This document shows positions 11,982 through 32,115 of a DNA stretch of 64,000 nucleotides, piece by piece; the first letter of the stretch is position 1; each line of letters starts with the position of its first letter. The notes beneath the pieces were generated by a model. That model saw nothing but the letters and a program-made list of their open reading frames with translations. It had not been told where the DNA came from and made no database searches. Location: contig CBDDKZ010000001.1 of assembly GCA_965230415.1 (NCBI GenBank), positions 77,184 through 141,183 of the forward strand, written 5' to 3'. Origin of the DNA: Cytophagales bacterium. Lineage in GTDB: Bacteria; Bacteroidota; Bacteroidia; Cytophagales; JAAEPT01. Made by a program: the position numbers and the translations under genes.

Positions 11982-12296
11982 ATGTCTACTATTCAAACTA
12001 AATTTGTCTACCACCTCCTAAGTGCTAATAAGTGGCAGCAACAGTCGGATCAGCTCTATTACACTCCACATGACCTGGAGCGCGTTGGTTTTATTCACTG
12101 TTGTTACGAAAATCAAATCGATTACGTACAACGCACCTATTTTTCAGATAAGCAGGATGTTGTGATATTAAAAATTAACCCTGAAAAGGTTGAAGTACCC
12201 GTAAAAGTTGAAGAATCGCAGCCTGGTATGAAATTCCCGCACCTCATAGGCTCTCTTAATACTGACGCTATAGAGCTTGTGAAAAGCTTGTATTAA
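11982..12296 (+). CDS. DUF952 domain protein
   Basis: VYHL, GFIHCC and FPHLIGSLNTDA motifs. Confidence 0.85.
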   Translation: MSTIQTKFVYHLLSANKWQQQSDQLYYTPHDLERVGFIHCCYENQIDYVQRTYFSDKQDVVILKINPEKVEVPVKVEESQPGMKFPHLIGSLNTDAIELVKSLY

Positions 12297-16902: not shown

Positions 16903-17733
16903 TTATTTAACCTGACTCATGATAATATTGTCAAACATGCTGTCACCAAGATAAATTCGCATCCATACCATGGGTTTTGCCCACTTACCAACACGATAGC
17001 GCGTCTTAGGCTTCCTGGCATTGACAATTTTAGAAACTGTGTTGGCGATTACTGCGGTAGGAGAAGTCGCATTTGGCTTATCGTAAGTAGCTTTTGTGGC
17101 TTCAGCAATCTTATTGGCAAGATCGGCATAAGCTCCATTTCCGGAATGATCAAGCATAGGCTGGTATAGTACATTGGCAAATTCTGTTCGAATAAGACCA
17201 GGCTCCAGCACTACAACATTGATATTAAATTGCTTTGTCTCCAGTCTCAGGCAATCACTCCATCCTTCTACAGCATGTTTTGAAGCATGATACCAAGCCC
17301 CAAGGGGAGTGTACATTTTTCCGCCCATTGAAGAAGTATTTAGAATAGTACCACTTTTGGCTTTCCTCATGTGAGGCAGTACCTTTTTGGTCAGGTTGGC
17401 CATCCCAAAAAGATTGACTTCAAATTGTCTCCTTGCTTCATCAATTGTCACGTCTTCAACTGCACCATAAAGTCCAAATCCTGCATTATTCCACAAAACA
17501 TCTATTTTGCCTGACTCATTGATAATTCGGTTTACGGCATTTTCTACATTTTCGTCATTTGAAACATCCATCTGAATGGGGTGTCCTCCCATTTGTTCCA
17601 AATCTTTCATCTTTTCGATTCTTCGGGCAGCCGTGTAAACCATATGCCCTTCTTTTATGAGCTTTATAGCGGCTTCTTTACCCATACCGGAAGAAGCGCC
17701 TGTAATTAGAATTGTCTTTTTTGATTTTGACAT
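16903..17733 (-). CDS. Short-chain dehydrogenase/reductase
   Basis: TGASSGMG, NNAG, SSMGG, YHASK. ATG at 17733. Confidence 0.93.
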   Translation of the reverse strand: MSKSKKTILITGASSGMGKEAAIKLIKEGHMVYTAARRIEKMKDLEQMGGHPIQMDVSNDENVENAVNRIINESGKIDVLWNNAGFGLYGAVEDVTIDEARRQFEVNLFGMANLTKKVLPHMRKAKSGTILNTSSMGGKMYTPLGAWYHASKHAVEGWSDCLRLETKQFNINVVVLEPGLIRTEFANVLYQPMLDHSGNGAYADLANKIAEATKATYDKPNATSPTAVIANTVSKIVNARKPKTRYRVGKWAKPMVWMRIYLGDSMFDNIIMSQVK

Positions 17734-17836
17734 GATTCGATAAAAATTGTGACAAGTCAAAATTGCTTAAGTCTATGAGGAATAATCAACACTTATCGCA
17801 GAGATAATAACACGAATCACAGGGGTACTCAGAAAT

Positions 17837-17867
17837 AAAAAAAGGGAAACCTTTTGAGCTTCCTTTG
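17837..17867 (-). terminator. Intrinsic terminator after the AraC gene
   Basis: Minus strand reads CAAAGGAAGCTCAAAAGGTTTCCCTTTTTTT. Confidence 0.55.
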
Positions 17868-17887
17868 AAGGCCTTATTAAGTACTGT

Positions 17888-18799
17888 TTAATTGGTCGTT
17901 TCTCTGTATTTCTGGGGTGTTATCCCTGTTTTGGTTTTGAATAACCTGCTGAAATAATGGGGGTAATTAAAGCCTAAAGAATAGGATATTTCGGCTACAG
18001 AATCTTCTGTGCTTAGCAATAAATTCTTGGCTTTATCAATCAAGAAATCATTGATGTGTTCTTTGGCACTTCTTCCTGTTTCATTCCTTAGCAAATCACT
18101 CAAATAGGTAGGGGACAGATTCACTTTTTCTCCCAGATACATCAATGACGGTGGACCATATTCGGGTAACTGACCTGTTTGATAATATTCCTTGAGTAGA
18201 TTATTAACGCGTGTAACAATGTCTTTGTTTTGCGAAAATCGTGTATGAAATTGCCTTTCATAGAAACGCAGGCAATAATTCAGAAGTAGTTCCAAAGAAG
18301 ATACAATTACCCTTTGACTATGGCTATCAATGCTTTCGCTGTATTCTTCCCGTATCTTCTGAATACAATCATTAAGCGTCTGTTTCTCCTTTTCTGAAAG
18401 ATGCAAAGCTTCATTAGCTTCATAATTGAAAAAGCTAAAATCTTCTATGTTTTCACCCAACGGAGTATTTCTAATGAGGTCTGGGTGAAAGAACAACATC
18501 CAACCGTGCTCTTTATCAAAGTCGTTTGTCGATTTGGCAGCTATGATCTGGTTGGGTGCCGTAAATGCAAGTACCCCTTCTTCAAAATCGTAATTGTTGC
18601 GGCCATATTCAAAGCCACAAGCAGCATTCTTAAGACCTATATAATAGAAATTGGCAGAAACTTTTGTTTTGGCAAACTCTTCAGTGATTATCAGTTTTGA
18701 GACATCAATAACACTAATGAGCGGGTGTTTTGGTTTCTCATACCCCAACATTTCATGTAGTTGGGTGATGGATTTTATTTCAATGATATTGTTTGTCAT
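17888..18799 (-). CDS. AraC-family transcriptional regulator (Bacteroidota type)
   Basis: PKHPLISVID, YGRNNYDF, LSPTYLSDLL, LGFNYPHYFSRLFK. A minus-strand TACCTTTG promoter at 18825-18832 supports the ATG at 18799. Confidence 0.93.
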   Translation of the reverse strand: MTNNIIEIKSITQLHEMLGYEKPKHPLISVIDVSKLIITEEFAKTKVSANFYYIGLKNAACGFEYGRNNYDFEEGVLAFTAPNQIIAAKSTNDFDKEHGWMLFFHPDLIRNTPLGENIEDFSFFNYEANEALHLSEKEKQTLNDCIQKIREEYSESIDSHSQRVIVSSLELLLNYCLRFYERQFHTRFSQNKDIVTRVNNLLKEYYQTGQLPEYGPPSLMYLGEKVNLSPTYLSDLLRNETGRSAKEHINDFLIDKAKNLLLSTEDSVAEISYSLGFNYPHYFSRLFKTKTGITPQKYRETTN

Positions 18800-18895
18800 C
18801 CCTACTAAGTTTATTTTTTTGGTGCAAAGGTAAGCACAAGCATACTTTTCACTTAACATACATCCCTTTTTTGATGGCACTAATCAAAGAATACT

Positions 18896-18985
18896 GACTA
18901 ACGTAGGTCAAAATACAATTTTCATTTTAGAAATATTCAATTCTTTCAATATCTCCAAATTCACACCACCTATCCTACGTTAGCC
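18896..18985 (-). repeat. attC-like site 1
   Basis: Minus strand reads GGCTAAC-GTAGG...CCTAC-GTTAGTC, an 11/12-bp terminal inverted repeat bounded by AAC/GTT. Confidence 0.6.
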
Positions 18986-19058
18986 TCTGATTTCAATTTG
19001 GGAAGCTGTAAATGCTTATCTTCAACTTTCAGAATTTCCGGCCCGAATCTGGGGAAAG

Positions 19059-19113
19059 ACACACAAGTTTTAATGTAAAATGTGCTTATAATGCATTTTA
19101 CATCGAGTTGGCC
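19059..19113 (-). repeat. attC-like site 2 (short, degenerate core)
   Basis: GGCCAAC starts 4 bp after the stop of 19118..20143. A perfect ATGTAAAATG/CATTTTACAT arm pair follows, ending in CTTGTGTGT where GTT is expected. Confidence 0.5.
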
Positions 19114-19117
19114 AATG

Positions 19118-20143
19118 TTATTCATTAGCTTTTAAGAGAAAAAAGCCCGTATGTCTCCCAATTATTAGTAAAAAATCATCTTTCAAAACAAAACCTTTTA
19201 CTGGTCCAGCCATTTTTCCACTCAAGCTAAAAGCCTTTCGCATTTCATATTCAAGTTTTGGTTTATGTGTTAGTGTAACCCCTTTTTCGTTGGGTGTTAG
19301 TACAGCCACAACAAATTTGTCCATACCTCCAGTATTTCCAACAATTAATAGTTCTTGATTCCTTTCAGCGAATGCTCCGTGGATCTCGTTTGTTTTTATT
19401 TTGGCTGCTTTATATCTTTTTAGTTTTTTGAGATTGGTTACATCATATTGTACCGTATTATCATTACCAATTAATAGCATTTGTTGATCAGGCACGAGCC
19501 ATTGCATGCTAGTTGGTAAGTAGCCATTTGCAGGTTGGTGCTTGCTTTGAAATTCGTATTTATTTCCATCTGATTTAGAATACACATGAAAACCTTGATG
19601 TCTTGATGCAATAAATAGGTTGTTTCTGCTTTTAACAATATTTGTTCCGGTATCGAAGAACATGGTTTCGTCTTCATTTGATAAATCAATTATTTTAGTT
19701 GCTTTATCATTTTTATCAACTGTCATAACTGCTTTTTCAGTACTTGAAATCAAATAAATGATCTCTGAATCGATAAAAAAATTAAGATATTCAGGAACTT
19801 TGATTGTTCTAACGCCAATAGGATTACTCAAATCGGAAATGTCAAATACTAAGATTGTATCAAGATCGTGTTTTTCTGAATAGGATAAATAGAGAAAATT
19901 TCCTTCTTTTTCCATTTGACTTGATCCACCAAAGCCCAGCTGGATTGTTGAGATTAAATTGATGGCGACTATATTCGTAATATCCCAAATCTTTATTCTA
20001 TTTGCATGACGAGTGATCAGTGTATTATCAAAAGACAATGATTCACCAAAATCTCTTTCTATGTCACGTTCTATGACTTCTTCAGGTTCATTTAGTTGGA
20101 TAGGTGTTTCTGTATAGCTATTTATATTACTTAATTTAATCAT
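19118..20143 (-). CDS. Hypothetical protein, probable beta-propeller (LVIVD-like repeats); cassette-like gene
   Basis: Repeated IWDITN, VFDISDLSNP and YDVTNLKK strands. No signal peptide; flanked by attC-like sites. Confidence 0.6.
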   Translation of the reverse strand: MIKLSNINSYTETPIQLNEPEEVIERDIERDFGESLSFDNTLITRHANRIKIWDITNIVAINLISTIQLGFGGSSQMEKEGNFLYLSYSEKHDLDTILVFDISDLSNPIGVRTIKVPEYLNFFIDSEIIYLISSTEKAVMTVDKNDKATKIIDLSNEDETMFFDTGTNIVKSRNNLFIASRHQGFHVYSKSDGNKYEFQSKHQPANGYLPTSMQWLVPDQQMLLIGNDNTVQYDVTNLKKLKRYKAAKIKTNEIHGAFAERNQELLIVGNTGGMDKFVVAVLTPNEKGVTLTHKPKLEYEMRKAFSLSGKMAGPVKGFVLKDDFLLIIGRHTGFFLLKANE

Positions 20144-20168
20144 ATTGATATTTTTTATTTAATATAGT

Positions 20169-20277
20169 TGCTAACGCCACTGTATAAATCTGTGGCTGTC
20201 TTTTCTTGTAATTTACTTTCGATCTGCCACAAAGTCAATCCACAAACCAGCCATGATTTCATACAGCGTATTTTAGC
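20169..20277 (-). repeat. attC-like site 3
   Basis: Plus strand reads TGCTAAC..CTGTAT-AAATC..TGGCTG ... CAGCCA..GATTT-C-ATACAG..TTAGC, paired arms with one unpaired base. GTTAGCA on the minus strand sits 25 bp before the next ATG. Confidence 0.6.
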
Positions 20278-20531
20278 TAGTATTATAATTCAATATATTT
20301 TCTGAATACGTTATTTGTAAATATTTAAAACCTATCTTTATCTCAAGATTTTATCTTTCATATTTCAGTTGAGCTGAGTTTATATGTTGTTGTGCTGGAT
20401 TCAAGCGCTATAATTCAACTTATTCATTTTCTTTCTTGGGGCAAGGACTATAAATCTTCTAGTTGATTTTTCAATTTGAGTAATAATCGCTGAGAATTAG
20501 ACTCTCAGGTTAATATAAAATGCTTTAGGAT

Positions 20532-21128
20532 ATGAGGGAGGATTTTGAATCATTAATTGATGACTTTTTGGAAAACCGAGTAGGAGTTTGTGAAGATTTT
20601 ATAGATTATAAATTATCACATGATTTAACTAGTAACCTCGTCTTTCTTTATAGAGAAGAGGAACTAAAACATGCTGGAGTAGGGAATAGAGATAGATCGG
20701 TTGTAGATCCCAATATTAGAAGTGATAAAATTTTTTGGTTAGATAAAAATAAGCTTCAAAAATCTGAAGAGTTATTCTTTGCTTTAATCGATTCATTTGT
20801 CCTTTACTTAAATAGAACCTGCTTTGCAGGTATTAAGTCTTATGAATTTCATTATGCGTTATACGAAAAAGGGACTTTTTACAAGAAGCACATTGATCAA
20901 TTTAAAACTGATCATGGTCGAGCATTTTCAATGATAATTTATCTAAATGAAGAGTGGATTAAGAAAGACGGGGGAGAGCTTAAAGTTTATAAGAAAGCTG
21001 AAGTACAATTAGTCTCTCCTGATAATAGAAAATGTGTGTTTTTTAAAAGTGATGAATTGCCTCACGAGGTACTGATGGTAAATAAATCGAGGATGAGTGT
21101 TACTGGTTAGCTAAAAACGACTGAATAA
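20532..21128 (+). pseudogene. 2OG-Fe(II) oxygenase (prolyl-hydroxylase/SM-20-like) with late nonsense codon
   Basis: IRSDKIFW, YKKHIDQF, IIYLN, GGEL, PHEV. RMSVTG is followed by TAG (21108-21110) then LKTTE-TAA, where the family ends RxSxTGW. Confidence 0.7.
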
Positions 21129-21243
21129 TACAGCTGTTTTTATACATTCTACCTCTAAAGTAAATGATTATATTAGTTACAACGACCCGGCTAATAAATC
21201 ATTCAATCCCCATAGCAAACAGCATTACAATAAGGAGGTAAGG

Positions 21244-22484
21244 TGTAATAGCCACTACTTGATCTGACATATGAGAGTTATCGGACATCTTGTTGATGCC
21301 CCATATTATTGGTTAAATTTAACGATTTTTCCTGATCAACCTCCCTTTTTTTATTGAGGGAGGATTGGTCAGAAAAAATTAATTGCTCTTGATTGATCAA
21401 CTTCTCTCTTGCTATTCGAATACTATCCTTAAAAGTTTGTATTGGAGTTTTACCAAAACAGAACTTTCCGCTATGAGTTCGTTGGTTATTATAGTAATCT
21501 ATCCATTGATCCAAATCTGTCTGTAACTGATCTATCGATTCATAAATTTTCTTGCGAAAAGCTACCCAAAAAAACTCTTCTTGCATAGTTCTATGAAAAC
21601 GTTCACAAATACCATTTGTTTGAGGGCTTTTTGCTTTGGTTTTTGTATGTGCAATATCCTCTATGGTTAAGTAAAGTTGGTATTCATGATGTTCTCTTTT
21701 TCCGCAATACTCAGTACCTCGATCTGTCAATACCCTTAATAGCTTTAGCTCATGTTGTTCATAAAACGGTAAAACCCTATCGTTAAGTAAATCAGCTGCA
21801 ACGATTGCATTCTTACGATCATAAAGTTTTACAAAGGCCACTTTACAGTAGGTATCTATAAATGTTTGAGCGTATATTCTCCCAATTCCTTTTACTGTTC
21901 CCACATAATAAGTGTCTTGAGAACCCAGATAACATGGGTGATGAGTCTCTATTTCTCCATGAGCTTGCTTTTCTTCCTTTGCTTTTTCTAAAGCTTGTAA
22001 CTGAGCTTCTGTTAAAATAAGATCCTCTTGAGCAGCTTTAGCTTCTAATGCCTTTAATCGCTTTTTTAGCGTCTCTAAATCATGACGTAGCCATACTGAT
22101 CTTACCCCTCCAGGTGATATGAATATACCTCGCTTTTTTAGTTCATTACTTGAACGTTGTTGACCAAAAGCAGGGAACTCTATAGCTATTGCAACTACTG
22201 CCTTTTCCACCTCCTCACTAACTCTGTTCTTTAAAACTGGTTTCTTACGACTAATTTCTTGAAGTGCTAGTTCTCCACCTTGCTCGTAGAGTTGTTTGAA
22301 TCTGTAAAATGAATCTCGACTATAGCCCATCACTTTACACGCCTGTGAAACACTTCCTAGTTGTTTACTAAGCTCTAATAATCCTAATTTGGTCTTGATG
22401 ATTTTGTCTTCACTTGTCATCACTTAATCTGTTTTAATATTATACAATTTAATTAAAATGTCAGATTAAGTCTTAACTAATACA
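21244..22484 (-). mobile_element. IS481-family insertion sequence, complete
   Basis: TGT...ACA ends; 27-bp imperfect TIRs (TGTAATAGCCACTACTTGATCTGACAT / TGTATTAGTTAAGACTTAATCTGACAT, 21/27 identical); direct repeat GGTAAGG at 21237-21243 and 22485-22491. Confidence 0.92.
21278..22423 (-). CDS. IS481-family DDE transposase
   Basis: [21 protein letters not shown] and rve core SQDTYYVG...LTDRGTEY...[10 protein letters not shown]. Confidence 0.95.
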
Positions 22485-22549
22485 GGTAAGGGCTCCAATG
22501 AACTGCGCCCTCAGCGCACTGCATTAGAGCTTAATTGTTGTGTGCTGGC

Positions 22550-22906
22550 TTATTTTTTCCAATGTTTTACTCTAAAATTTTGAACTAAAGAATCTGCGGT
22601 CAATTGAATCATTAGCGTCTTTGTTTCAATTGGGTCAATGTCCAAACCATAATCTTCCATCAAAGTGTAGCCGATGGTATTCTCTTTTAAGTTGGCAAAA
22701 TTTTCTGGTTGTCCAATTAAGTCTGTTAATTCCAGATATGTCATTCCTTTTTTTAAGTGATTTTCCATCAGGTCTTTGGCCATAGATTCTCTGTACTTGT
22801 AAAAACCGTCCACGCTATCATTCCATTTAGATTTTTCAAAATCCAGTTGATCAGTCCCACATGAACCTAAGAAGCAAAGGCACAAAATTGCGAACAGCTT
22901 TTTCAT
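22550..22906 (-). CDS. Small lipoprotein (SmpA/BamE-like LKKGMT...LIGQP motif); cassette-like gene
   Basis: Lipobox LGSC; the stop is followed after 4 bp by GCACACAAC. Confidence 0.7.
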   Translation of the reverse strand: MKKLFAILCLCFLGSCGTDQLDFEKSKWNDSVDGFYKYRESMAKDLMENHLKKGMTYLELTDLIGQPENFANLKENTIGYTLMEDYGLDIDPIETKTLMIQLTADSLVQNFRVKHWKK

Positions 22907-23199
22907 CCTTCTTCAGTCCATTTTTTTGTTAAAGACCTGTAAACTTTAGATTCTCCAACACTAAGCCCATACCAAACCATATAAGTTGAGTCGGTCTGTT
23001 TTTGATAGAACGCCAGACTATCCATTTTTTCAGTAAGTCCAAGTTCAGATACATCTTTAGGCAGTCTATTATTTTCCTTCCGAAAAGTCTCAACCTTTTC
23101 AATTAGCATTTCGGCATACTCTTGTCGTTCATTATTGAATTCACAACTATAAAGTTCGAATAGTAGTACAATGGTCAATATTATAATTAGTGGTTTCAA
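22903..23199 (-). CDS. Small lipoprotein; cassette-like gene
   Basis: Likely TTG start at 23199, just after GTTGTGTGC, giving MKPLIIILTIVLLFELYSC (lipobox). ATGA overlap with the next gene. Confidence 0.65.
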   Translation of the reverse strand: MKPLIIILTIVLLFELYSCEFNNERQEYAEMLIEKVETFRKENNRLPKDVSELGLTEKMDSLAFYQKQTDSTYMVWYGLSVGESKVYRSLTKKWTEEG

Positions 23200-23210
23200 T
23201 TTTTCTGCTT

Positions 23211-23406
23211 GCACACAACGCCAAAATAAAAGCTGTAGGGCGTTCAACTACCAATATAGTCTCAATTTAAGACCAAGGCAACTTTGCGAGGGGACATTTT
23301 AAATTCCCGAAAAACAAATGGCAATTTGCAAAGTTGCAGGTGATTCAGACTGCCACTTCCCTTTCCAACTCACGGCTTACCTATGGATTTTATTTAATGT
23401 TTCAGC
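23211..23406 (-). repeat. attC-like site (long)
   Basis: AAC..AAAATAAAA..TAGG pairs with CCTA..TTTTATTT..GTT. There is an inner perfect IR GCAACTTTGC/GCAAAGTTGC. The site starts right after the stop at 23409. Confidence 0.6.
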
Positions 23407-23408
23407 AT

Positions 23409-23951
23409 TTAATATTGTTCTTTGATTTGATGACCCGCATGGATTAGATGTTTTTTCATATTATCAAATGCATCAGCATCAACCGCTAAATCTTCCTCTT
23501 TTTCATTCTTCATCCATAAACATCCAAAACATATATGCAGTATTCCTTGAACTTTATTTTCTCTAGAATAGAAGACTATTGAATCCCTGAAGACAGGAGC
23601 ACACATAGCAGCAACTTGATCATTCAATGGTTGCGCTAGAATTTCGATAATTCCCCTTACAAATTCATCATCTTTGTTCCATTCGCCAATAGGTACAGTA
23701 GACTTATGAAGATCGCCATCATTGTTTATTATTCGGGAACTGTAAATGTTAATTTCTTCATTCAGAAATTCAATTTGCTTTTTCAATTTTGGTCGTTGCA
23801 TATATCGAGCAGTCTTTATGTCTTGCTTAATTTGATCTATCTGCTCATTGTTCTTCTTTACCAAGGATTCATAATTATACCCTCTTAACCCTGAATATGA
23901 TTTAACATAGACATATTCCAAATTTTTAATCTGTTCTGCCGCTGTTTTCAT
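23409..23951 (-). CDS. Hypothetical protein with C-x-P...ICFxC motif; first cassette-like gene
   Basis: 180-aa ORF containing MCAPVFRDSIVFY...LHICFGC. Confidence 0.65.
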   Translation of the reverse strand: MKTAAEQIKNLEYVYVKSYSGLRGYNYESLVKKNNEQIDQIKQDIKTARYMQRPKLKKQIEFLNEEINIYSSRIINNDGDLHKSTVPIGEWNKDDEFVRGIIEILAQPLNDQVAAMCAPVFRDSIVFYSRENKVQGILHICFGCLWMKNEKEEDLAVDADAFDNMKKHLIHAGHQIKEQY

Positions 23952-23982
23952 TAGTACATATGTACTTTACTCCCATTTTAGA

Positions 23983-24023
23983 AAGCGTAGAATTATCCGT
24001 ATAATTCTACGCTTATGTTTTAT
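23983..24023. other. Candidate tyrosine-recombinase attachment site
   Basis: Perfect IR AAGCGTAGAATTAT-ccgt-ATAATTCTACGCTT overlapping a Xer-like TATCCGTATAA-N8-TTATGTTTTAT, between the array and the integrase. Confidence 0.45.
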
Positions 24024-24133
24024 TTTTCAGTATTAATACACATAAACTTTAGAATATGTTGCACTAAACCGCTACCGCGGTAGTGTGTGGTGAAAAATAC
24101 GTCTAAGAATTCATAACTAAAAAAAATACCCTT

Positions 24134-24640
24134 ATGAATTCTAAAAACAGTAAAGGAGGCGTTTACACGCTTAGCGACAAAAACATCAACCAAATAGAGG
24201 ACTTATCCTCATTACTTAATCACCTGTTAAAACGTGTTTCTATTGAACAAGCCTATAGTACGGTACGGATTTACCGCCGTAGTTTGCGTGACATTAGCTT
24301 GTTTCACGGAGCATTACCCGATAGCCTGGAGCTGGATGAGATTCTAGATTACCTCAGCTTTTTATAAGAAAGAGGCAATGGCTGGGCCAAGATAAAATTG
24401 GATGTGGCTGCGTTGCGTTATTTCTATCGAGAGATCTGTCACGACCCGTTACCAGCAGCAGGTATTCCCTATCCTAAAGAAGAAAAATCCTTGCCTAAAA
24501 TTTTAAGCAGGGAAGAACTTGTCCGCTTATTTGATGCAGCAAAGAACCCCAAGCATCGGGTGATGCTTAGACTGATCTATTTGCATGTTAGTGAGGTGCT
24601 TTTGAAAGGAGCCTTTAGCCCTTTGGATAACATTGAATAA
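24134..24640 (+). pseudogene. Tyrosine recombinase/integrase pseudogene
   Basis: The two track ORFs share a frame and are split by TAA at 24365. It has a SAM-like N-terminus (STVRIYRR...AALRYFY) and IPYPKEEKSLPKILSREE...NPKHRVMLRLIY fused directly to C-terminal LHVS...SPLD, so the catalytic core is missing. Confidence 0.85.
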
Positions 24641-24821
24641 TAAACATCAAGGGCTTGCTTTAACGATACAGCAACTACTGGCGAGGCATTTTACACCTTT
24701 ACAAAAGCAAGGGCTGTTCAATAGCCGGCAAACGCGTGTGTCTAATGCCCTTCGGCAATGCAAAACCGAAAGCCTGGGCGGTCATTGGCAGGCATGCACA
24801 CATTGTGGCCGTTTAAGCTGA
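24633..24821 (+). pseudogene. IS91-like transposase N-terminal zinc-binding fragment
   Basis: ALRQCKTESLGGHWQACTHCG matches the CRT..LGG....C..CG motif; truncated immediately after. Confidence 0.8.
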
Positions 24822-24968
24822 CATTACCTTGTTTACCTTACAGTTGAGTTAAAAATTGTCGGAAAAGAAAAATAGGTACGAAGAAGTGCTCTTTCTTAGA
24901 ATCAACTATATTAGAGGCACTATCTTCGTTACTTTTAGAAGGTACTATCAGCATAAAAAACATAGCAA

Positions 24969-26088
24969 ATGAATATCAAAAAGGTAATAAGGAAAATTTT
25001 AAAAGTGATCATGTACATTTTTGCGGCATTGATCTTTTTAGTTGTCTGTACACTTCTTTATGTCAACATACATCCAACCTTTGGTGATAGCCCTAATGAA
25101 GAAAGCATGAAAAAAATTGAAAAGTCCAAGCATTACCACGATGGAAAATTTCATAACCTGGTACCTACATCGCTTATAACTTCTGAAGAAGGAGCAGACT
25201 ATTCCATTTCTGATTTCTTTTTCCCACCGGATGACAAGAATCCTCTGAAGCCTTTGCCATCAGAAAAACTGGATACGAACAAGGTTAAAGATGGAACTTT
25301 TACCTGGATGGGGCATGCATCAATACTGATGAAAACTAATGGCATGACTATTCTCACAGACCCCGTTTATCACAATGCCTCTCCTGTTGTTATTGGGGGG
25401 AAACCATTTGAACTTGAACATCCTTTTGATTTAAAAGACCTTCCTAAAATAAATGTAATCGTTATTTCACACGATCATTACGACCACCTGGAGTATGAGG
25501 GAATCCAGGAGTTTGCGAGCAAGGTCGATCAATTTTTTGTACCATTAGGCGTAAAGGCCCATGTTATGAAGTGGGGGGTGGCTAAAAACAAAATTGTGGA
25601 GATGGATTGGTATGAGAGCACCACCTACAAAGGGGTGGAGTTCACATTGGTACCTTCAAGGCATTTTAGCGGAAGAGGGATCACAAATGGTCATTCTACA
25701 CTTTGGGGAGGTTGGATATTCAAATCGGATAGGCGTAACATCTATTTCAGTGGTGACTCCGGCTATTTTGACGAGTTCGAAAAAATCGGTGAAAAGTATG
25801 GTCCCTTTGATATTTCATTTATTGATAGTGGTGCCTATGATGAAGCATGGGCAACGGTTCATATGTGGCCCAAGCAAAGTGTACAGGCAAGTATTGATCT
25901 AAAGTCAGCCGTGTATTTACCCATAGGATGGTCGAGGTTTGATTTGGCACCTCATTATTGGGACGACCCTCATCAGAGCTACGAAAGAAGCTGAAAAGCA
26001 AAACGTAACAATCACGACTCCATTGATTGGACAAACGTTTACATTGGATGAATTGCCTCAAACGAAATGGTGGGAAGCGATGAGGTAA
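24969..26088 (+). pseudogene. MBL-fold metallo-hydrolase (RomA/NAPE-PLD-like), frameshifted near the 3' end
   Basis: WMGHAS, SHDHYDHL, RHFSGR, SGDSGY. After WDDP (~25970) the family-like tail IRATKEAEKQNVTITTPLIGQTFTLDELPQTKWWEAMR continues in another frame to TAA 26088. Confidence 0.8.
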
Positions 26089-26125
26089 ATGGTTAATTCA
26101 AACGACCGCGGCAAACATAACCTAT

Positions 26126-26542
26126 TTATTCTTCTTTGTTGTTAGGCATTCGTTTTTTCGATTTTATTAACATATATAGGGCATGAGGTAACATTAAAAA
26201 TGTCATTCCGGAAAGTGGTATCATGTACACACCAACAAGTGTAACCAATAAATAGACATAAATCAGGGCAGAGGGAATGAACTTACTCGTCTTTTCAATG
26301 TAATCGATTGCCATCCCAAACGGAATAAGCAGTAAGCCAAAATAAACGAACCAAAAGGCTGCAAAATGTTCGTAGTTCATCTGCCCATTGAGAAGCGAGA
26401 ATTCCAAGAGTCCATCACTTATTTTAAAGAACAATTTCTGAGAAAATACGCTAAACTGTTTCCCAAAAGCCCAAGGTGATATACCTAACAAAAAATGTGA
26501 ACCACCAAGAAATACCAGGATTTTTCCGTTGCTTATTGTCAT
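26126..26542 (-). CDS. Small membrane protein (DUF6463-like)
   Basis: GGSHFLLG, AAFWFVYFG and MIPLSG; 3-4 TM helices. Confidence 0.65.
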   Translation of the reverse strand: MTISNGKILVFLGGSHFLLGISPWAFGKQFSVFSQKLFFKISDGLLEFSLLNGQMNYEHFAAFWFVYFGLLLIPFGMAIDYIEKTSKFIPSALIYVYLLVTLVGVYMIPLSGMTFLMLPHALYMLIKSKKRMPNNKEE

Positions 26543-26609
26543 AATATAACGATTTTGATTTCAATTACTTTTTGTCCGAGTTTTTCATTCCTATATTTTC
26601 GTTATTCGG

Positions 26610-26948
26610 CTATAAAATTCGTTTTAATTTTTGCTCAAAATGAGTGTTCGTAAGCTTAGCTACACTGAAAAACTTGAACAAGATGAAGACAGCAGGAATA
26701 GTTAAGAAAATGATACAGATGGCGAATGTACCGACGCTACAAAATACGTTTAGGATTTGAGCGCCTATCGCTCCAATATATATCGAAATACGTTCTTCTT
26801 GCGTTGTAAAATAGTGGTTGACAGCAACAGCATATTCATAAAAACGAACAAGGGTTTCGTAGCCTAACCACATACCATAAAACCATTTTCTTATCGAGTC
26901 CCACCATTTGCCCCAAATTGAGTGCCCTTGTGTGCTATTTTTTTTCAT
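26610..26948 (-). CDS. Hypothetical membrane protein
   Basis: 112-aa ORF co-oriented between the Crp gene and the DUF6463-like gene. Confidence 0.55.
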   Translation of the reverse strand: MKKNSTQGHSIWGKWWDSIRKWFYGMWLGYETLVRFYEYAVAVNHYFTTQEERISIYIGAIGAQILNVFCSVGTFAICIIFLTIPAVFILFKFFSVAKLTNTHFEQKLKRIL

Positions 26949-26992
26949 TGTTCAAAGGTCGAACAATGAAGGAGTAAGTCATTTGATATAGA

Positions 26993-27571
26993 TCAAATTC
27001 GATTTTTAGGTTTGCGAATTCGGCTTAACGTTTCAAGTGTAATTCCCAAATAAGACGCAATATGGGTTAGTGGGATTCTTTCCGTTATATTGGGGTAAAT
27101 ACTTAAAAGATGCTCGTAGCGCTGTTCTGCCTTGTTAAACTGAATACTATGTAATCTTTCGCACAAGCCCAACATCGTTTCGGTAACTACTCTACTTATC
27201 AAACGCTCAAAATCATGGTATTTGTTTGAAAGCAAATCTACGCTTGTCTTATTAAATTCATATACTGTAGCATCTTCAATAAATTCCACATAATGAGGGC
27301 TTGGCTCTTCACTAAAAAAACTCACTATTGATGCCATAAACTGGTTCTCAAACGTAAACCAATCTGAGATGTCTTTTCCGTCTTTTAAATAATAGGCCCG
27401 AGCACAGCCATCTACTATTAAATAAGCTTTTTGAGCATATTGCCCCTCACGAATAACGACGGTACCCTTTTTAAACGTTTTTAATGTGGAATTTGCAAAG
27501 AAATCTTGTTGACATTCAAAAGACAGCGGCGCATAGAAGTCGCCAATTATAGCTAAGATTGTTTCGTTCAT
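26993..27571 (-). CDS. Crp/Fnr-family transcriptional regulator
   Basis: cNMP-binding domain (GCARAYYLKDGKD) and HTH IASYLGITLETLSRIR. Confidence 0.93.
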   Translation of the reverse strand: MNETILAIIGDFYAPLSFECQQDFFANSTLKTFKKGTVVIREGQYAQKAYLIVDGCARAYYLKDGKDISDWFTFENQFMASIVSFFSEEPSPHYVEFIEDATVYEFNKTSVDLLSNKYHDFERLISRVVTETMLGLCERLHSIQFNKAEQRYEHLLSIYPNITERIPLTHIASYLGITLETLSRIRKPKNRI

Positions 27572-29247: not shown

Positions 29248-32115
29248 CTATTCTACTACTATTTTCTGACTCCAATAACGGCCGTCTGCAAAGGCCTTGA
29301 GCAAGTACATCCCTGTGTTTAGCTTACTTACAGGAAACTGAAAACTGGTAGATTCGGGTTTAAGGGAAGCAACTACCTGGCCTCTCTGATCAACCAGCTC
29401 TACGCGCTCTAACAGCTCTTCGCTATCAAAAACGATACTTTCTCCTGCGCGCACCGGGTTTGGAAAGGTCCTGATTTCAAAGTTGATGATTGGCAGCACA
29501 CCAACACAAATATCCGCGCAAGAGCCACCGCAGTCAACGCCGTCTTCATCGCCACTTTGTACACCATCCACACAATGTTGCGCCTGGATGTATTCAAATA
29601 TTACTTTGTCAATATGTAATGTATCTTCCTCAGCTAGTATCTTGAGAACGGCGTCTTCCATCGCATTTAAATGAACTGCTTCCAATTCAACTTTTGCAAA
29701 CGAACTTACGGAATTGGTGTTTTCCACTTCTACCTCGTCTATCAACTCATCATCAAGATAGAAGCTTAATTTTGCACCACTGCTCACTGTACTACCTACA
29801 TAAAATTCAATATCATAAATTCCTTCTTTTACATCCACTGTATATTCCATCCACTCGTCTTTGGCAAAAGTACCTACCGCGTATCCATCTGTCAGTTTAT
29901 AGATATCGACAGTTTCGCTTGCCCGGTACACCGTGTCACCTGCTCTGATAGTATCGTCATGGTATGCCACGGATTCGCCTCCTTCATCAAAATATTCTGC
30001 TTCTATAATACCTGGAATTTGTAATTTCCATCCATTGAAAGATAACTGCATAGCATCTTTTTCCACAAACACTGCCGTGATATTCAAATCTTTATACAAA
30101 TAGGTCTTAAACACTTGTTCTTCGGACTCAATATCGCCCGTCCAGTGCGAAAAGCGATAGCCGCTGGCTGCCTGAGGAATTAATGTCAACAAAGTACACT
30201 CTCCATAGACTCCATCGGCTGTATTTACAGCCCCCTCTCCTACTACATCAACTGTTAACTCAAAGCTGCTGCCACAATAGGCAAATCCACTTACTGACCA
30301 ATCAAGTACGTTCTCTCCAACAACTAAGTCTTCGATAGGTCCCACAGTAGGGGTACTATCCCTCATACTAAGATCATAGTCACCATTGACCGTAATTGGA
30401 TTTCCAAATTGATCTTCAATTCCCTGTCTGGGCAGTGGTATTCTACCGATAAGCTCATTAGTAACCAAAGGAGTATTCATATCCTGGAAAGAATCATCCA
30501 TCGTAAATGACACCGTCGCGCTGGTTGGCGTCTCACTAATATTAAAGTCGATAGATGCGTCACTTTCAGTGGCATCTGTACCTCCCGGGCTCAAAGGAGC
30601 ACCCTCCATATACAGGTTATTATTGATAACGCCCCCTTCATCACTATAAGCGAAAAAATTGCTGGATGTTGAAAACCCTGCTATAATATTGTTATACACT
30701 TTATTATATACGTTTTGAACATTGGTAAATAAATAGATCTCAGCCGTATGTGGATTTACCACATAAGCGCCTCTACCTTCTCCGCCACTTACCTGATCAA
30801 AATATTGAATACCGTAGTTTATATGGCAACGGTATAATAGATTATGTGCCAGAATCGTTCCTCCCGAATGACAATCGATTCCCCGATCTGAGCCATTACC
30901 TACAAAAATGTTATTATCCAGGAGATTTGGTCCAAAATTCGCCTCCAGCCAAATGGCATCGCCACTATTATCATATACAATGTTTCTGGTAATACGAGTA
31001 CCCTGGTTTGCATAGTCGATCCACATACCAAAAACAGAGTAATTGCTCTTATATACCCTTCTAATTACGTTACTCTCTATCGTTAAATCCGTACAATTCC
31101 ATACTTTCAAACCAGCTGTTTCAAAACCACCTAACAGTCGATCGGTGTTAATATCTTCGATCAGGTTACCTTTGATTAAGGATCTGGAAAAGCCTTTTTG
31201 ACCCGCAATACCATATTCTCCACAATTGGTAATAATATTATTTTGAACAGTATGCCCTCCATATAAATCCAGGTTAGAATGCGCTACTCCTGCCGTAAAA
31301 GATTCTCCCATCATTATACCTGCAGTTTTGGAAAAGCTTACCTCACAGTTTTGAATAACCCAACCTTTTCCCATTTTAGAACCAACAGCACCTACCTGGG
31401 TTATATTGGGAGTAGCTCCTCCGTCATTCGGTGCCTGCCAGTTTGGTGCAGCGTGGTAAAAGTGTAAACCATCCACTACGATATAGTCTATTCTTCCTTT
31501 TGTCGGAAAAAACAGGAGTTCCCGCACATTGATCTCAGTCATATTGATATTTGGATCCAAACCTGCAAAATTGGCGGTAATAAGTACTGAATCAACAAGG
31601 TCATCTACTTTCCAAAAAAAGTTCGATTCACTAAGATCACTTGATCTTGTCTCTTTTAACTTCTTATGATTTATATAAACTTCTCCTCTGTGGTATTGCT
31701 GCCCTTGTAATTGAAAATCTCCATCGACATTCAATAAATAAGGGTTATAGTCACCAAAAAAACTATTAGGAATTTTGACTTGCCATAATTCGGTATTAAT
31801 GCGTTTCCAGTTTTCAATGACCTCCGAACCTTTTATGTATACAATGTCGTTTTCAAAATTCTTATATACAATGGGTAATCCGGCTTCACCTGAATTCTGA
31901 GGATTTACATACTCCCTATAAGTTCCTGAATGAATCAGCACCGTATCACCTGCAACAGCTACTTCTGCGGCTTTAGAAACGCTTAGAAATGGCGAAACCT
32001 CTGTGCCATCATTACCATCATCACCGTCCTTGGACACATGATATACCATGGCCTTCACTAATAAGCTACTTAACAAGAACGAAACCAATACTACCTTCTT
32101 CAACGAATTCATCAT
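29248..32115 (-). CDS. T9SS-secreted right-handed beta-helix glycosidase (GH120-like) with bacterial repeat, CBM6-like module and Cys-rich repeat
   Basis: YHVSKDGDDGNDGT...HSGTYREYVNP (DUF1565), EINVR, GSKMGKGWVIQNC, IPGIIEAEYFDEGGESVAYHD (CBM6), CVDGVQSGDEDGVDCGGSC and CTD FPNPV...GMYLLK. Confidence 0.8.
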   Translation of the reverse strand: MMNSLKKVVLVSFLLSSLLVKAMVYHVSKDGDDGNDGTEVSPFLSVSKAAEVAVAGDTVLIHSGTYREYVNPQNSGEAGLPIVYKNFENDIVYIKGSEVIENWKRINTELWQVKIPNSFFGDYNPYLLNVDGDFQLQGQQYHRGEVYINHKKLKETRSSDLSESNFFWKVDDLVDSVLITANFAGLDPNINMTEINVRELLFFPTKGRIDYIVVDGLHFYHAAPNWQAPNDGGATPNITQVGAVGSKMGKGWVIQNCEVSFSKTAGIMMGESFTAGVAHSNLDLYGGHTVQNNIITNCGEYGIAGQKGFSRSLIKGNLIEDINTDRLLGGFETAGLKVWNCTDLTIESNVIRRVYKSNYSVFGMWIDYANQGTRITRNIVYDNSGDAIWLEANFGPNLLDNNIFVGNGSDRGIDCHSGGTILAHNLLYRCHINYGIQYFDQVSGGEGRGAYVVNPHTAEIYLFTNVQNVYNKVYNNIIAGFSTSSNFFAYSDEGGVINNNLYMEGAPLSPGGTDATESDASIDFNISETPTSATVSFTMDDSFQDMNTPLVTNELIGRIPLPRQGIEDQFGNPITVNGDYDLSMRDSTPTVGPIEDLVVGENVLDWSVSGFAYCGSSFELTVDVVGEGAVNTADGVYGECTLLTLIPQAASGYRFSHWTGDIESEEQVFKTYLYKDLNITAVFVEKDAMQLSFNGWKLQIPGIIEAEYFDEGGESVAYHDDTIRAGDTVYRASETVDIYKLTDGYAVGTFAKDEWMEYTVDVKEGIYDIEFYVGSTVSSGAKLSFYLDDELIDEVEVENTNSVSSFAKVELEAVHLNAMEDAVLKILAEEDTLHIDKVIFEYIQAQHCVDGVQSGDEDGVDCGGSCADICVGVLPIINFEIRTFPNPVRAGESIVFDSEELLERVELVDQRGQVVASLKPESTSFQFPVSKLNTGMYLLKAFADGRYWSQKIVVE

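Follow-up and report, generated by a model that had tools for sequence, protein, structure and literature searches.

Contig C1 of a Cytophagales bacterium genome (GenBank assembly GCA_965230415.1; here G000, 6.47 Mb in 5 contigs) carries a series of short orphan genes that are separated by imperfect hairpins bounded by AAC and GTT. We analyzed this locus within a stretch of 64,000 nucleotides (G000:C1:77184-141183, henceforth termed the window, with positions counted from its first letter), in which the gene series occupies 18.9-24.06 kb and is followed by the remains of a tyrosine recombinase gene and of an insertion sequence (IS) of the IS91 family, which encodes an HUH transposase (Table 1). 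Of the six non-IS genes between 17.9 and 24.0 kb, five are encoded on the minus strand. An original prediction, made from the sequence alone, had described the locus as an integron-like array: orphan genes mostly on one strand with hairpins between them, one hairpin site split by an IS, a recombinase gene divergent from the array with a palindrome in between, and an IS91 remnant overlapping that gene, both enzymes being broken. This description holds in large part. The IS belongs to the IS481 family and is flanked by a 7-bp target duplication (GGTAAGG), the palindrome is a perfect one of 14 bp at 23983-24014 (fold z = -5.6), and the recombinase frame ends at 24640, beyond the start of the transposase frame at 24633. 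The roles of these parts, however, are assigned differently here. With a probability of roughly 0.78, the segment at 18.9-24.06 kb represents an outlying, decayed and integrase-less piece of a cassette system of integron type that this genome shares with many other Bacteroidota, and the recombinase-IS91 remnant is a separate, cassette-shaped element sitting in a resident attC site.

Table 1. Features of the cassette region and the adjoining element, in window coordinates. R'' and R' denote the AAC-side and GTT-side boxes of a site; R1 is the covariance model described in the text; C3 and C5 are other contigs of the same genome.
Feature	Position	Strand	Details
AraC-family regulator gene	17888..18880	-	Pfam HTH_18, E = 8.9e-21
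Hairpin site 1	18896..18985	-	R''-like GGCTAAC at 18985-18979; R'-like GTTAGTC at 18902-18896
80-nt repeat unit, no open reading frame (ORF)	18977..19056	.	copies at C3:548425 (90%), C3:567671 (82.5%), C5:1965100 (82.5%)
attC-like site 2	19058..19116	-	R1 11.6 bits, E = 0.22; G of its GTT missing
341-aa orphan cassette gene	19118..20143	-	no Pfam family
attC-like site 3	20167..20277	-	stem arms CTGTATGAAATCATGGCTG, CAGCCACAGATTTATACAG; R' GTTAGCAAC at 20175-20167; degenerate R''
Lone R''-like half-site	20386..20398	-	CCAGCACAACAAC, read from sequence
2OG-Fe(II) oxygenase gene	20532..21110	+	sole plus-strand gene, inverted relative to array; Pfam PF13640, E = 3.9e-20
3' part of IS-split site	21176..21243	-	R' GTTGTAAC at 21183-21176
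IS481-family IS, 1241 bp	21244..22484	-	NF033577 278.6 bits (cut-off 224)
5' part of IS-split site	22492..22545	-	R'' GCACACAAC at 22545-22537
Cassette with intact boundary signature	22537..23219	-	holds the 114-aa and 118-aa ORFs; GTTGTGTGC and GCACACAAC, 683 bp apart
118-aa lipoprotein-like ORF	22550..22906	-	no Pfam family
114-aa lipoprotein-like ORF	22903..23247	-	no Pfam family
attC-like site 5	23211..23406	-	71-75% identical to C5:4276505-4276666, C3:572243, 550512, 536180
180-aa orphan cassette gene	23409..23951	-	no Pfam family
Resident attC body	23953..24058	-	own R'' lost to inserted element; last ~13 nt and R' missing
Recombinase-IS91 cassette-like element remnant	24059..24821	+	starts TTGCACTAAACC after G24058; truncated at 24821; own 3' attC absent
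Tyrosine recombinase pseudogene	24134..24640	+	in-frame TAA 24365-24367; catalytic core deleted; NF040815 47.9 bits, TIGR02249 37.7 bits
IS91-family HUH transposase N-terminal zinc-binding fragment, 62 aa	24633..24821	+	PF14319, E = 8.2e-7

The window sites are tied to a cassette system by their homology to sites in larger arrays, by one intact cassette and by shared site types. Copies of all intergenic window sites, at 71-98% identity, are found in two larger arrays of this genome, at C5:4.26-4.31 Mb and C3:0.46-0.57 Mb, and beyond these arrays the 6.5-Mb genome holds a single further paralogue, an extra copy of the 80-nt unit on C5. Site 3 belongs to a family of eight copies, of which the other seven (89-98% identical) lie only in arrays (C5:4.26-4.31 Mb and C3:548-555 kb). 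The part of the IS-split site at 21176..21243 has an uninterrupted relative, 96% identical, at C3:462540-462649, and site 1 has an 81%-identical copy at C3:567748-567914. Judged by eye, site 2 shares its architecture and stem sequence with C5:4283994-4284078 and with a site in an Aquimarina array (L058:19999-20056). The one clean cassette pair of the window consists of GTTGTGTGC at 23219-23211 and GCACACAAC at 22545-22537, which are complementary over 9 nt. The window sites are divergent or decayed members of the array-site family. Four of them (19058-19116, 20167-20277, 21176-22545 and 23211-23406) form a cluster of at least two attC sites with no integron integrase nearby (CALIN), where attC is meant in the sense of this lineage and not in that of IntegronFinder.

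The rule that governs these cassettes can be read from the C5 array, which is headed by one intact gene for a 375-aa Xer/IntI-like recombinase (C5:4286166-4287293, minus strand). The first four cassettes after this gene start and end with exact complements: GTTGTGTGGC with GCCACACAAC, GTTAGCGG with CCGCTAAC, GTTACAA with TTGTAAC, and GTTGGCATT with AATGCCAAC. A cassette opens with GTT and 4-7 further bases, and this stretch of 7-10 nt has its exact complement at the cassette's other end, in AAC and the bases that precede it, which places the crossover between G and TT, as in integrons. To the right of the recombinase gene, a second array shows such pairs too, among them GTTATGT/ACATAAC and GTTGTGG/CCACAAC. 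Two fragments of a paralogue of the 375-aa recombinase (63% and 73% identical) lie inside the C3 array and nowhere else in the genome. Matches to this recombinase at E <= 1e-10 are confined to C5 and C3, with none on the contig of the window; the window array is integrase-less because the 375-aa gene is absent there. Looser genome-wide searches for the signature had little power. A hairpin heuristic was too noisy (1860 matches, ~5.8 per 20 kb), a search of the genome for chains alone drowned in chance matches (13172 pairs), automatic chain walkers went astray after 2-3 steps, and position-weight matrices of half-sites returned 190 real pairs against 363 in reversed sequence. Chain links between the heuristic hairpins numbered 24 against ~10 expected; the bin C3:550-600 kb held 7 of them and the bin C5:4.30-4.35 Mb another 8.

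Dozens of other Bacteroidota genomes have arrays with the integron cassette signature. Relatives of the 375-aa protein number in the thousands; the best 120 listed are 60-67% identical, and the named organisms are mostly Flavobacteriaceae. In the genome collection, 560 stretches encode a relative, and for flank analysis we took 80 loci with homologues of the gene from this collection. Under the same rule for both flanks, links of at least 8 nt between GTT and AAC of consecutive intergenic regions numbered 197 per 337.7 kb downstream of the gene versus 56 per 629.6 kb upstream, and the downstream genes were nearly all on the recombinase strand. In one locus (L039), ~12 cassettes follow one another, each 0.45-1.1 kb long; their complements span 9-10 nt and their sites ~130 nt. 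The first linked GTT falls 17-137 nt after the stop codon of the 375-aa gene in 28 of the 41 loci with enough sequence. Many of the 80 loci reach a contig end less than 1 kb past the gene, as is expected if repeats follow. Separately, three loci with other taxonomic labels carry a recombinase of the Bacteroidota type: L083, with an array, is labeled Rhodobacteraceae, and L080 and L096 are Chromatiaceae and Patescibacteria metagenome-assembled genomes. These labels are either binning errors or reflect spread beyond the phylum.

To describe the sites themselves, we aligned 57 of them (130-145-nt class, from 26 loci, none from this genome) and built the covariance model R1 on this alignment. RNAalifold returned a 12-bp inner stem with compensatory changes in all 12 pairs and an invariant unpaired A in the 5' arm. 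All 138 R1 matches at E <= 1e-6 lie downstream of the 375-aa gene and on its strand (40 of the 80 loci; 57 of the matches are training sites). In the Cytophagales genome, R1 has six matches at E < 0.005, each of them within the array on C3 or that on C5. For one site from L039, end-to-end folding was obtained with the bottom strand (-22.1 kcal/mol, z = -3.9) but not with the top strand. Across 163 sites, complementarity within one site beyond AAC and GTT is near random (27-52% per position), which is expected if the bases after GTT belong to the next cassette. The imperfect hairpin, AAC and GTT boxes, inner stem and unpaired base of attC sites are thus found in the arrays of other genomes and in those on C3 and C5, and in part in the window. 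The cassette boundary at G/TT is likewise seen in the C5 array and in other genomes. The original prediction had noted cores that do not fit GTTRRRY; this turns out to be a trait of the lineage, as only 12 of 165 sites in other genomes fit this consensus, while core position 4 is a purine in 151 of them. Its wider idea of integron-like cassette biology in Bacteroidota is borne out by the attC-type relatives and the G/TT crossover. In the window, R1 also matches 12122-12204 (minus strand, 16.8 bits), where the match covers the loop part of the model only, and 30621-30700 (minus strand, 10.5 bits), which lies inside a 958-aa ORF; both are probably chance.

Folding of the window sites, computed for single-strand DNA with z-scores against 200 shuffles, gave a graded picture. 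Site 1 (z = -3.36, 0/200 shuffles as good), which has a perfect 10-11-bp terminal inverted repeat (GCTAACGTAGG/CCTACGTTAG), and site 3 (20169-20277; z = -3.42, 1/200) fold clearly. Site 5, at 23.2 kb, is intermediate, with z = -2.69 for its 3' part and -0.27 for its 5' part. At 19059-19113, site 2 forms a 10-bp hairpin with a weak signal (z = -1.44, 11/200), and the half-site at 20386-20398 has none (z = +0.49); its resemblance to the 5' half of the site at 22537 is by eye only. An alternative that draws on this unevenness takes the inverted repeats for ordinary terminators or for repeats like repetitive extragenic palindromic (REP) sequences in a variable island, with AAC and GTT coincidental. 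The heterogeneity of the window sites and the failure of the covariance model to find most of them fit such repeats, 8-nt GTT/AAC complements are common by chance in A+T-rich DNA, and a terminator-pattern scan found 8 sites versus 4.6 expected. Only one of these terminator-like matches, however, coincides with a claimed site, namely the palindrome at 23983-24014. Repeats of this kind would also have to have their paralogues in arrays and almost nowhere else in 6.5 Mb, to show exact boundary complements of 7-10 nt in those arrays, and to recur as the same site types in arrays of other genera, and we regard this explanation as very improbable. An Rfam scan of window positions 17000-27000 returned nothing relevant. 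The 80-nt unit next to site 1 holds a small CCC...GGG hairpin of its own, and its copy at C3:548425 lies directly before an attC of the site 3 type.

The second part of our reading concerns the recombinase-IS91 remnant. When the window is aligned with an occupied locus at C5:2.68 Mb and an empty site of the same type at C5:5.03 Mb, the junction falls at AAC in the resident R'' box. The palindrome and the rest of segment 23953-24058 are therefore an invaded attC body, not an attI, and the element itself starts at 24059. The next cassette at C5:2.68 Mb retains its pair, GTTGTACCGC/GCGGTACAAC. The recombinase remnant of the window is 63% identical to an intact 305-aa relative over residues 6-153 of the latter, and of its catalytic domain the C-terminal LHVS...SPLD tail is left. 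The transposase fragment corresponds to profile positions 1-50 of 356 in NF033538 (31.9 bits, cut-off 125) and is not a full-length HUH (Y2) enzyme. The genome contains two IS91 fragments in all, the one in the window and a C-terminal one at C5:2682998 that abuts a 97% copy of window 23953-24163; an intact recombinase-IS91 pair was not found in this genome.

Intact forms of the element were found elsewhere. Relatives of the window recombinase are present on 15 metagenome contigs and in 2 genomes (among 250 genomes of the class searched; both on short contigs). An overlapping IS91 ORF of 342-413 aa follows on ten contigs (L108-L111, L114, L116, L117, L119, L120 and L122), L118 has a non-overlapping one of 355 aa, and the remaining four metagenome contigs carry a partial ORF or none. 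Two of these transposases were scored against NF033538, at 426 and 400 bits, and are full-length. All 17 relatives share the start motif TTGCACTAAACC of the window element. They and the C5 copy carry the conserved end motif ...GGTTTAGTGCAAC, next to which differing attC bodies are found in most; on the strand opposite to the recombinase gene, the DNA upstream of that gene contains ...GGTTTAGT(G/T)CAAC in the same 18 cases. The abutting attC-like body is complete with spacer and terminal GTT in at least 8 loci, and R1 scores two of these bodies at 30 bits. At the other end, ~230-280 nt after the transposase stop, a conserved 3' attC reads GCGGTTCAGTGCAAC-ACT-stem...stem-ATT-GTT, with variable bases beyond; 9/9 loci that extend 330 nt past the transposase have this site, and its fold has z = -4.0 to -6.5 in the three loci tested. 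In the eight elements with both ends on a contig (2447-2492 bp), 12-14 of the first 15 nt are complementary to the R'' that the element itself carries, and all eight right flanks differ. The element is therefore built like a cassette, with attC-type G/TT junctions at its ends. ORFs flanking it on both sides are on the opposite strand, and the element is therefore inverted relative to its host arrays. Three copies (L118, L119 and L120) are identical downstream of the transposase and have three different right flanks, which suggests that they moved recently.

These data bear on the model of the original prediction, in which the recombinase-IS91 pair is the platform of the array, with an intI-like recombinase, the palindrome as attI and the HUH transposase feeding single strands. 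The link of this pair to folded sites stands, given the end motif in 17/17 relatives and an own attC in 8/8 elements, but it takes the form of inverted insertion into attC. The divergent geometry is that of classical integrons, the recombinase is of the IntI-like group, with NF040815 and TIGR02249 as its best NCBIfam models, and recombinases of IS91 elements have been described as the closest homologues of IntI (10.1101/542381). As all relatives abut attC-like DNA, the recombinase very probably acts on attC, judging from these sequences, and could move cassettes in trans. The conserved end of the element, however, meets an attC body at AAC and not the 5' end of a cassette at G/TT, as an attI would. 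Its own attC at the far end and the variable flanks on both sides make it a passenger, and the palindrome region, proposed as attI, exists without the element at C5:5.03 Mb. The two large arrays of the genome lack such a pair and carry a different recombinase family, that of the 375-aa protein. A close orthologue of the intact element recombinase was not found in 400 sampled Bacteroidota genomes (best non-self match 41% identical), whereas arrays headed by the 375-aa gene are far commoner. A platform role for the pair is thus unlikely.

Several points weigh against reading the window as a decayed outpost of a cassette system with a separate inserted element. The boundary signature is seen in one window cassette, with the chain broken at the other junctions, and the chain in the C5 array itself breaks after four cassettes. 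R1 finds one of the five or six claimed window sites, and weakly: the match at 19058-19116 (minus strand; 11.6 bits, E = 0.22) is second-best in 64 kb and not significant alone, and site 1 was not detected by R1. Site 1 pairs perfectly up to AAC and GTT and, unlike the family, has no unpaired spacer. When its two parts are joined in silico without the IS, the IS-split site (z = -2.33, mononucleotide shuffles) folds mainly as an internal hairpin and not end to end. The 57 training sites were picked by their chain signature, and the covariation counts and R1 are not fully independent of it. The ORF caller was crude and accepted ATG starts only. Metagenome contigs with the element are short (1.4-5.8 kb), and the surrounding arrays are seen only at their edges. 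The 375-aa recombinase, finally, is assigned its putative integrase role by its position.

A candidate for the integrase of the arrays is nevertheless at hand, and we infer from gene position that the 375-aa protein would fill this role. It matches NF040815 at 223 bits (cut-off 220) and then TIGR02249 at 198 bits (cut-off 265), and none of the 43 TIGR02249 matches in the genome reaches the cut-off, i.e., a canonical IntI was not found in this genome. The protein aligns to residues 13-181 and 244-318 of VchIntIA (2a3v), and between these blocks 19 residues stand against the 62 of the additional domain in VchIntIA. In an intact form of the element recombinase (TIGR02249 169 bits), 17 residues similarly stand against 59 in IntI. 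The additional domain around patch III that is specific to IntI, which the original prediction had proposed to look for in the recombinase, is therefore absent from both enzymes. The window remnant and the 375-aa protein are 26% identical. In a structure model (pLDDT 76), the 375-aa protein has an extra N-terminal beta/alpha domain of ~105 aa; Foldseek against the Protein Data Bank (PDB) ranked XerA and IntI4 as nearest solved folds for the model and gave no lead for the N-terminal domain.

Alternatively, the arrays could be of integron type with the 375-aa recombinase as a conserved neighbor, e.g., an Xer-like housekeeping gene beside a hotspot, while another enzyme performs the recombination. 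Besides the positional assignment of its role, the protein lacks the insertion with which IntI binds the extrahelical bases of attC, an insertion called essential for integron function (PMC8138268), and 60-67% identity across genera (best 120 listed) is high for an accessory gene. Its distribution is nonetheless patchy: 38 of 301 sampled Bacteroidota genomes match at E <= 1e-70, and the gene is therefore accessory and not housekeeping. The genome holds two further Xer-like genes (326 aa and 307 aa) and no canonical IntI, and degraded paralogues of the 375-aa recombinase are found only inside the second array, on C3. The arrays begin within 137 nt of the stop codon in 28/41 loci and are always on the recombinase strand. 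That the gene is just a neighbor is therefore unlikely, about as unlikely as the platform role of the recombinase-IS91 pair.

Comparison with known systems shows which features are shared. Like proteobacterial chromosomal integrons and CALINs (in the IntegronFinder sense), the arrays consist of short, mostly co-oriented orphan genes separated by imperfect AAC/GTT hairpins with crossover at G/TT, with sites that are alike within an array, an unpaired base in the 5' arm, a better-folding bottom strand and integrase-less clusters in the same genome. They differ in that the recombinase lacks the IntI insertion, has the additional ~105-aa N-terminal domain and is co-oriented with its cassettes, not divergent, and in a core of GTTR plus variable bases. 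Co-orientation of integrase and cassettes is shared with integrons of the Spirochaetota type; Spirochaetota integrases generally keep the IntI additional domain, however, which the 375-aa protein lacks. Typical Spirochaetota IntIs are generally in reverse orientation (10.1101/2022.02.06.479319), and the same paper, on archaeal integrons, describes the additional domain as a defining characteristic of IntI.

The element has relatives of other kinds. ISShvi3, an IS91 element, carries an integrase gene, and in such elements a recombinase ORF lies just upstream of, and overlaps, the HUH transposase ORF, as here. Unlike these, the present element is bounded at G/TT on both sides, ends in an own attC whose R'' complements its first 15 nt, and sits inverted in attC sites of an array lineage without IntI. 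Specific insertion into attC is known from the IS1111-attC group and from group IIC-attC introns, the latter usually inserting opposite to the cassettes (PMC9229058). Those elements use a DDE transposase or retrohoming, whereas ours encodes a tyrosine recombinase and an HUH transposase, and its junctions are the crossover points of attC recombination. Smyshlyaev and co-authors place recombinases of IS91 and IS3 elements next to IntI and without the insertion (10.1101/542381, PMC8138268).

For Bacteroidetes, the IntegronFinder 2 preprint mentions cassette-less integrase genes, from an earlier study, and one complete integron, in Salinibacter ruber (10.1101/2022.02.28.482270). One review includes Bacteroidota among the phyla in which integrons were detected, and a 2024 preprint names them among clades previously without integrons. 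The literature that we searched contained no description of Bacteroidota arrays with such a recombinase, and the recombinase-IS91 cassette architecture was undescribed there beyond a passing remark on ISShvi3, its nearest precedent. Two features thus appear undescribed: a Bacteroidota integron lineage with a non-canonical, co-oriented recombinase, and a recombinase-IS91 cassette that invades attC.

The mechanism that we propose is as follows. Cassettes bounded by hairpins of the form xxxxxxxAAC-stem...stem-GTTxxxxxxx recombine at G/TT, with the 375-aa recombinase, whose arrays start 17-137 nt past its stop codon and run in its direction, as the likely integrase. The window array has lost its head, one of its sites is split by the IS481-family IS and several others are mutated. 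The separate element measures ~2.45-2.49 kb when intact, with a start at G followed by TTGCACTAAACC, an IntI-like recombinase of ~300 aa, an IS91 HUH transposase of ~400 aa and its own attC at the end, and inserted in inverted orientation at the R'' end of the resident attC. Its recombinase presumably recombines the element's own attC with a resident attC, and the rolling-circle transposase may supply single-stranded circles for this reaction. Extended to the phylum, this would mean that Bacteroidota own a widespread integron lineage, with a ~375-aa co-oriented integrase that lacks the IntI insertion and has an extra N-terminal domain, together with a self-mobilizing recombinase-IS91 cassette whose transposase makes a single-stranded DNA circle that the recombinase integrates at folded attC. 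We consider this wider proposal tentative, with the odds somewhat against it.

Integrons are the textbook case of gene capture, with the IntI insertion regarded as the protein trait that defines them, and surveys report almost none in Bacteroidota. The system described here works like an integron and departs from current definitions in one point, the lack of the IntI additional domain. If the 375-aa recombinase drives the arrays, integron-type recombination is possible without the canonical insertion, and standard tools have overlooked a large cassette pool in marine Flavobacteriia and related groups; such a lineage would explain why the phylum has looked nearly integron-free. The recombinase-IS91 cassette, if the proposal is true, would connect the mechanisms of HUH transposition and integron recombination directly, and it would offer a natural system for testing rolling-circle supply of single-stranded DNA to an attC recombinase. 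The window itself is modest, a decayed array with two dead mobile elements.

Among the genes of the window, that for the AraC-family regulator is probably the last cassette-like gene of the array. It has paralogues inside both large arrays (C5:4261631-4262529 and C3:555313-556212), and its homologue in a relative (G022, L012) adjoins a 44-bit attC model match. No paralogues of the 341-, 118-, 114- and 180-aa proteins or of the oxygenase were found in this genome and the 80 recombinase loci. When the DNA of 30 relatives was searched with window 17800-25100, the matches were confined to the IS, the genes for the AraC regulator and the oxygenase, and 60 nt of site 3; the window array itself is not conserved among these relatives. 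The IS at 21244-22484 has the DDE transposase, terminal inverted repeats and short target duplication of the IS481 family, with ends of ~27 bp that read TGT...ACA by eye. Four more full copies and one partial copy lie elsewhere in the genome (C5:1043252, C5:5430374, C5:5599646, C5:5613600 and C3:352935), and since the four full copies are 100% identical, the IS was recently active.

Further features accompany the large arrays. The ~190-nt attC sites of this genome (C5:4284823-4285016 and related long sites) hold internal GTCAATCC...GGATTGAC hairpins, one or two in each site. A gene for a cysteine-rich protein of 153 aa (C5:4287317-4287778, plus strand) lies divergent from the 375-aa recombinase gene; the protein has a weak match to DUF2116, a probable treble clef. 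Elsewhere in the genome, near-identical genes for tyrosine recombinases of 308-315 aa recur at C5:5.54-5.63 Mb, C5:0.88-0.91 Mb and C3:0.64-0.65 Mb with a spacing of ~8-10 kb; some are adjacent in twos or threes, and they may be recombinase-trio elements or parts of a repeated island.

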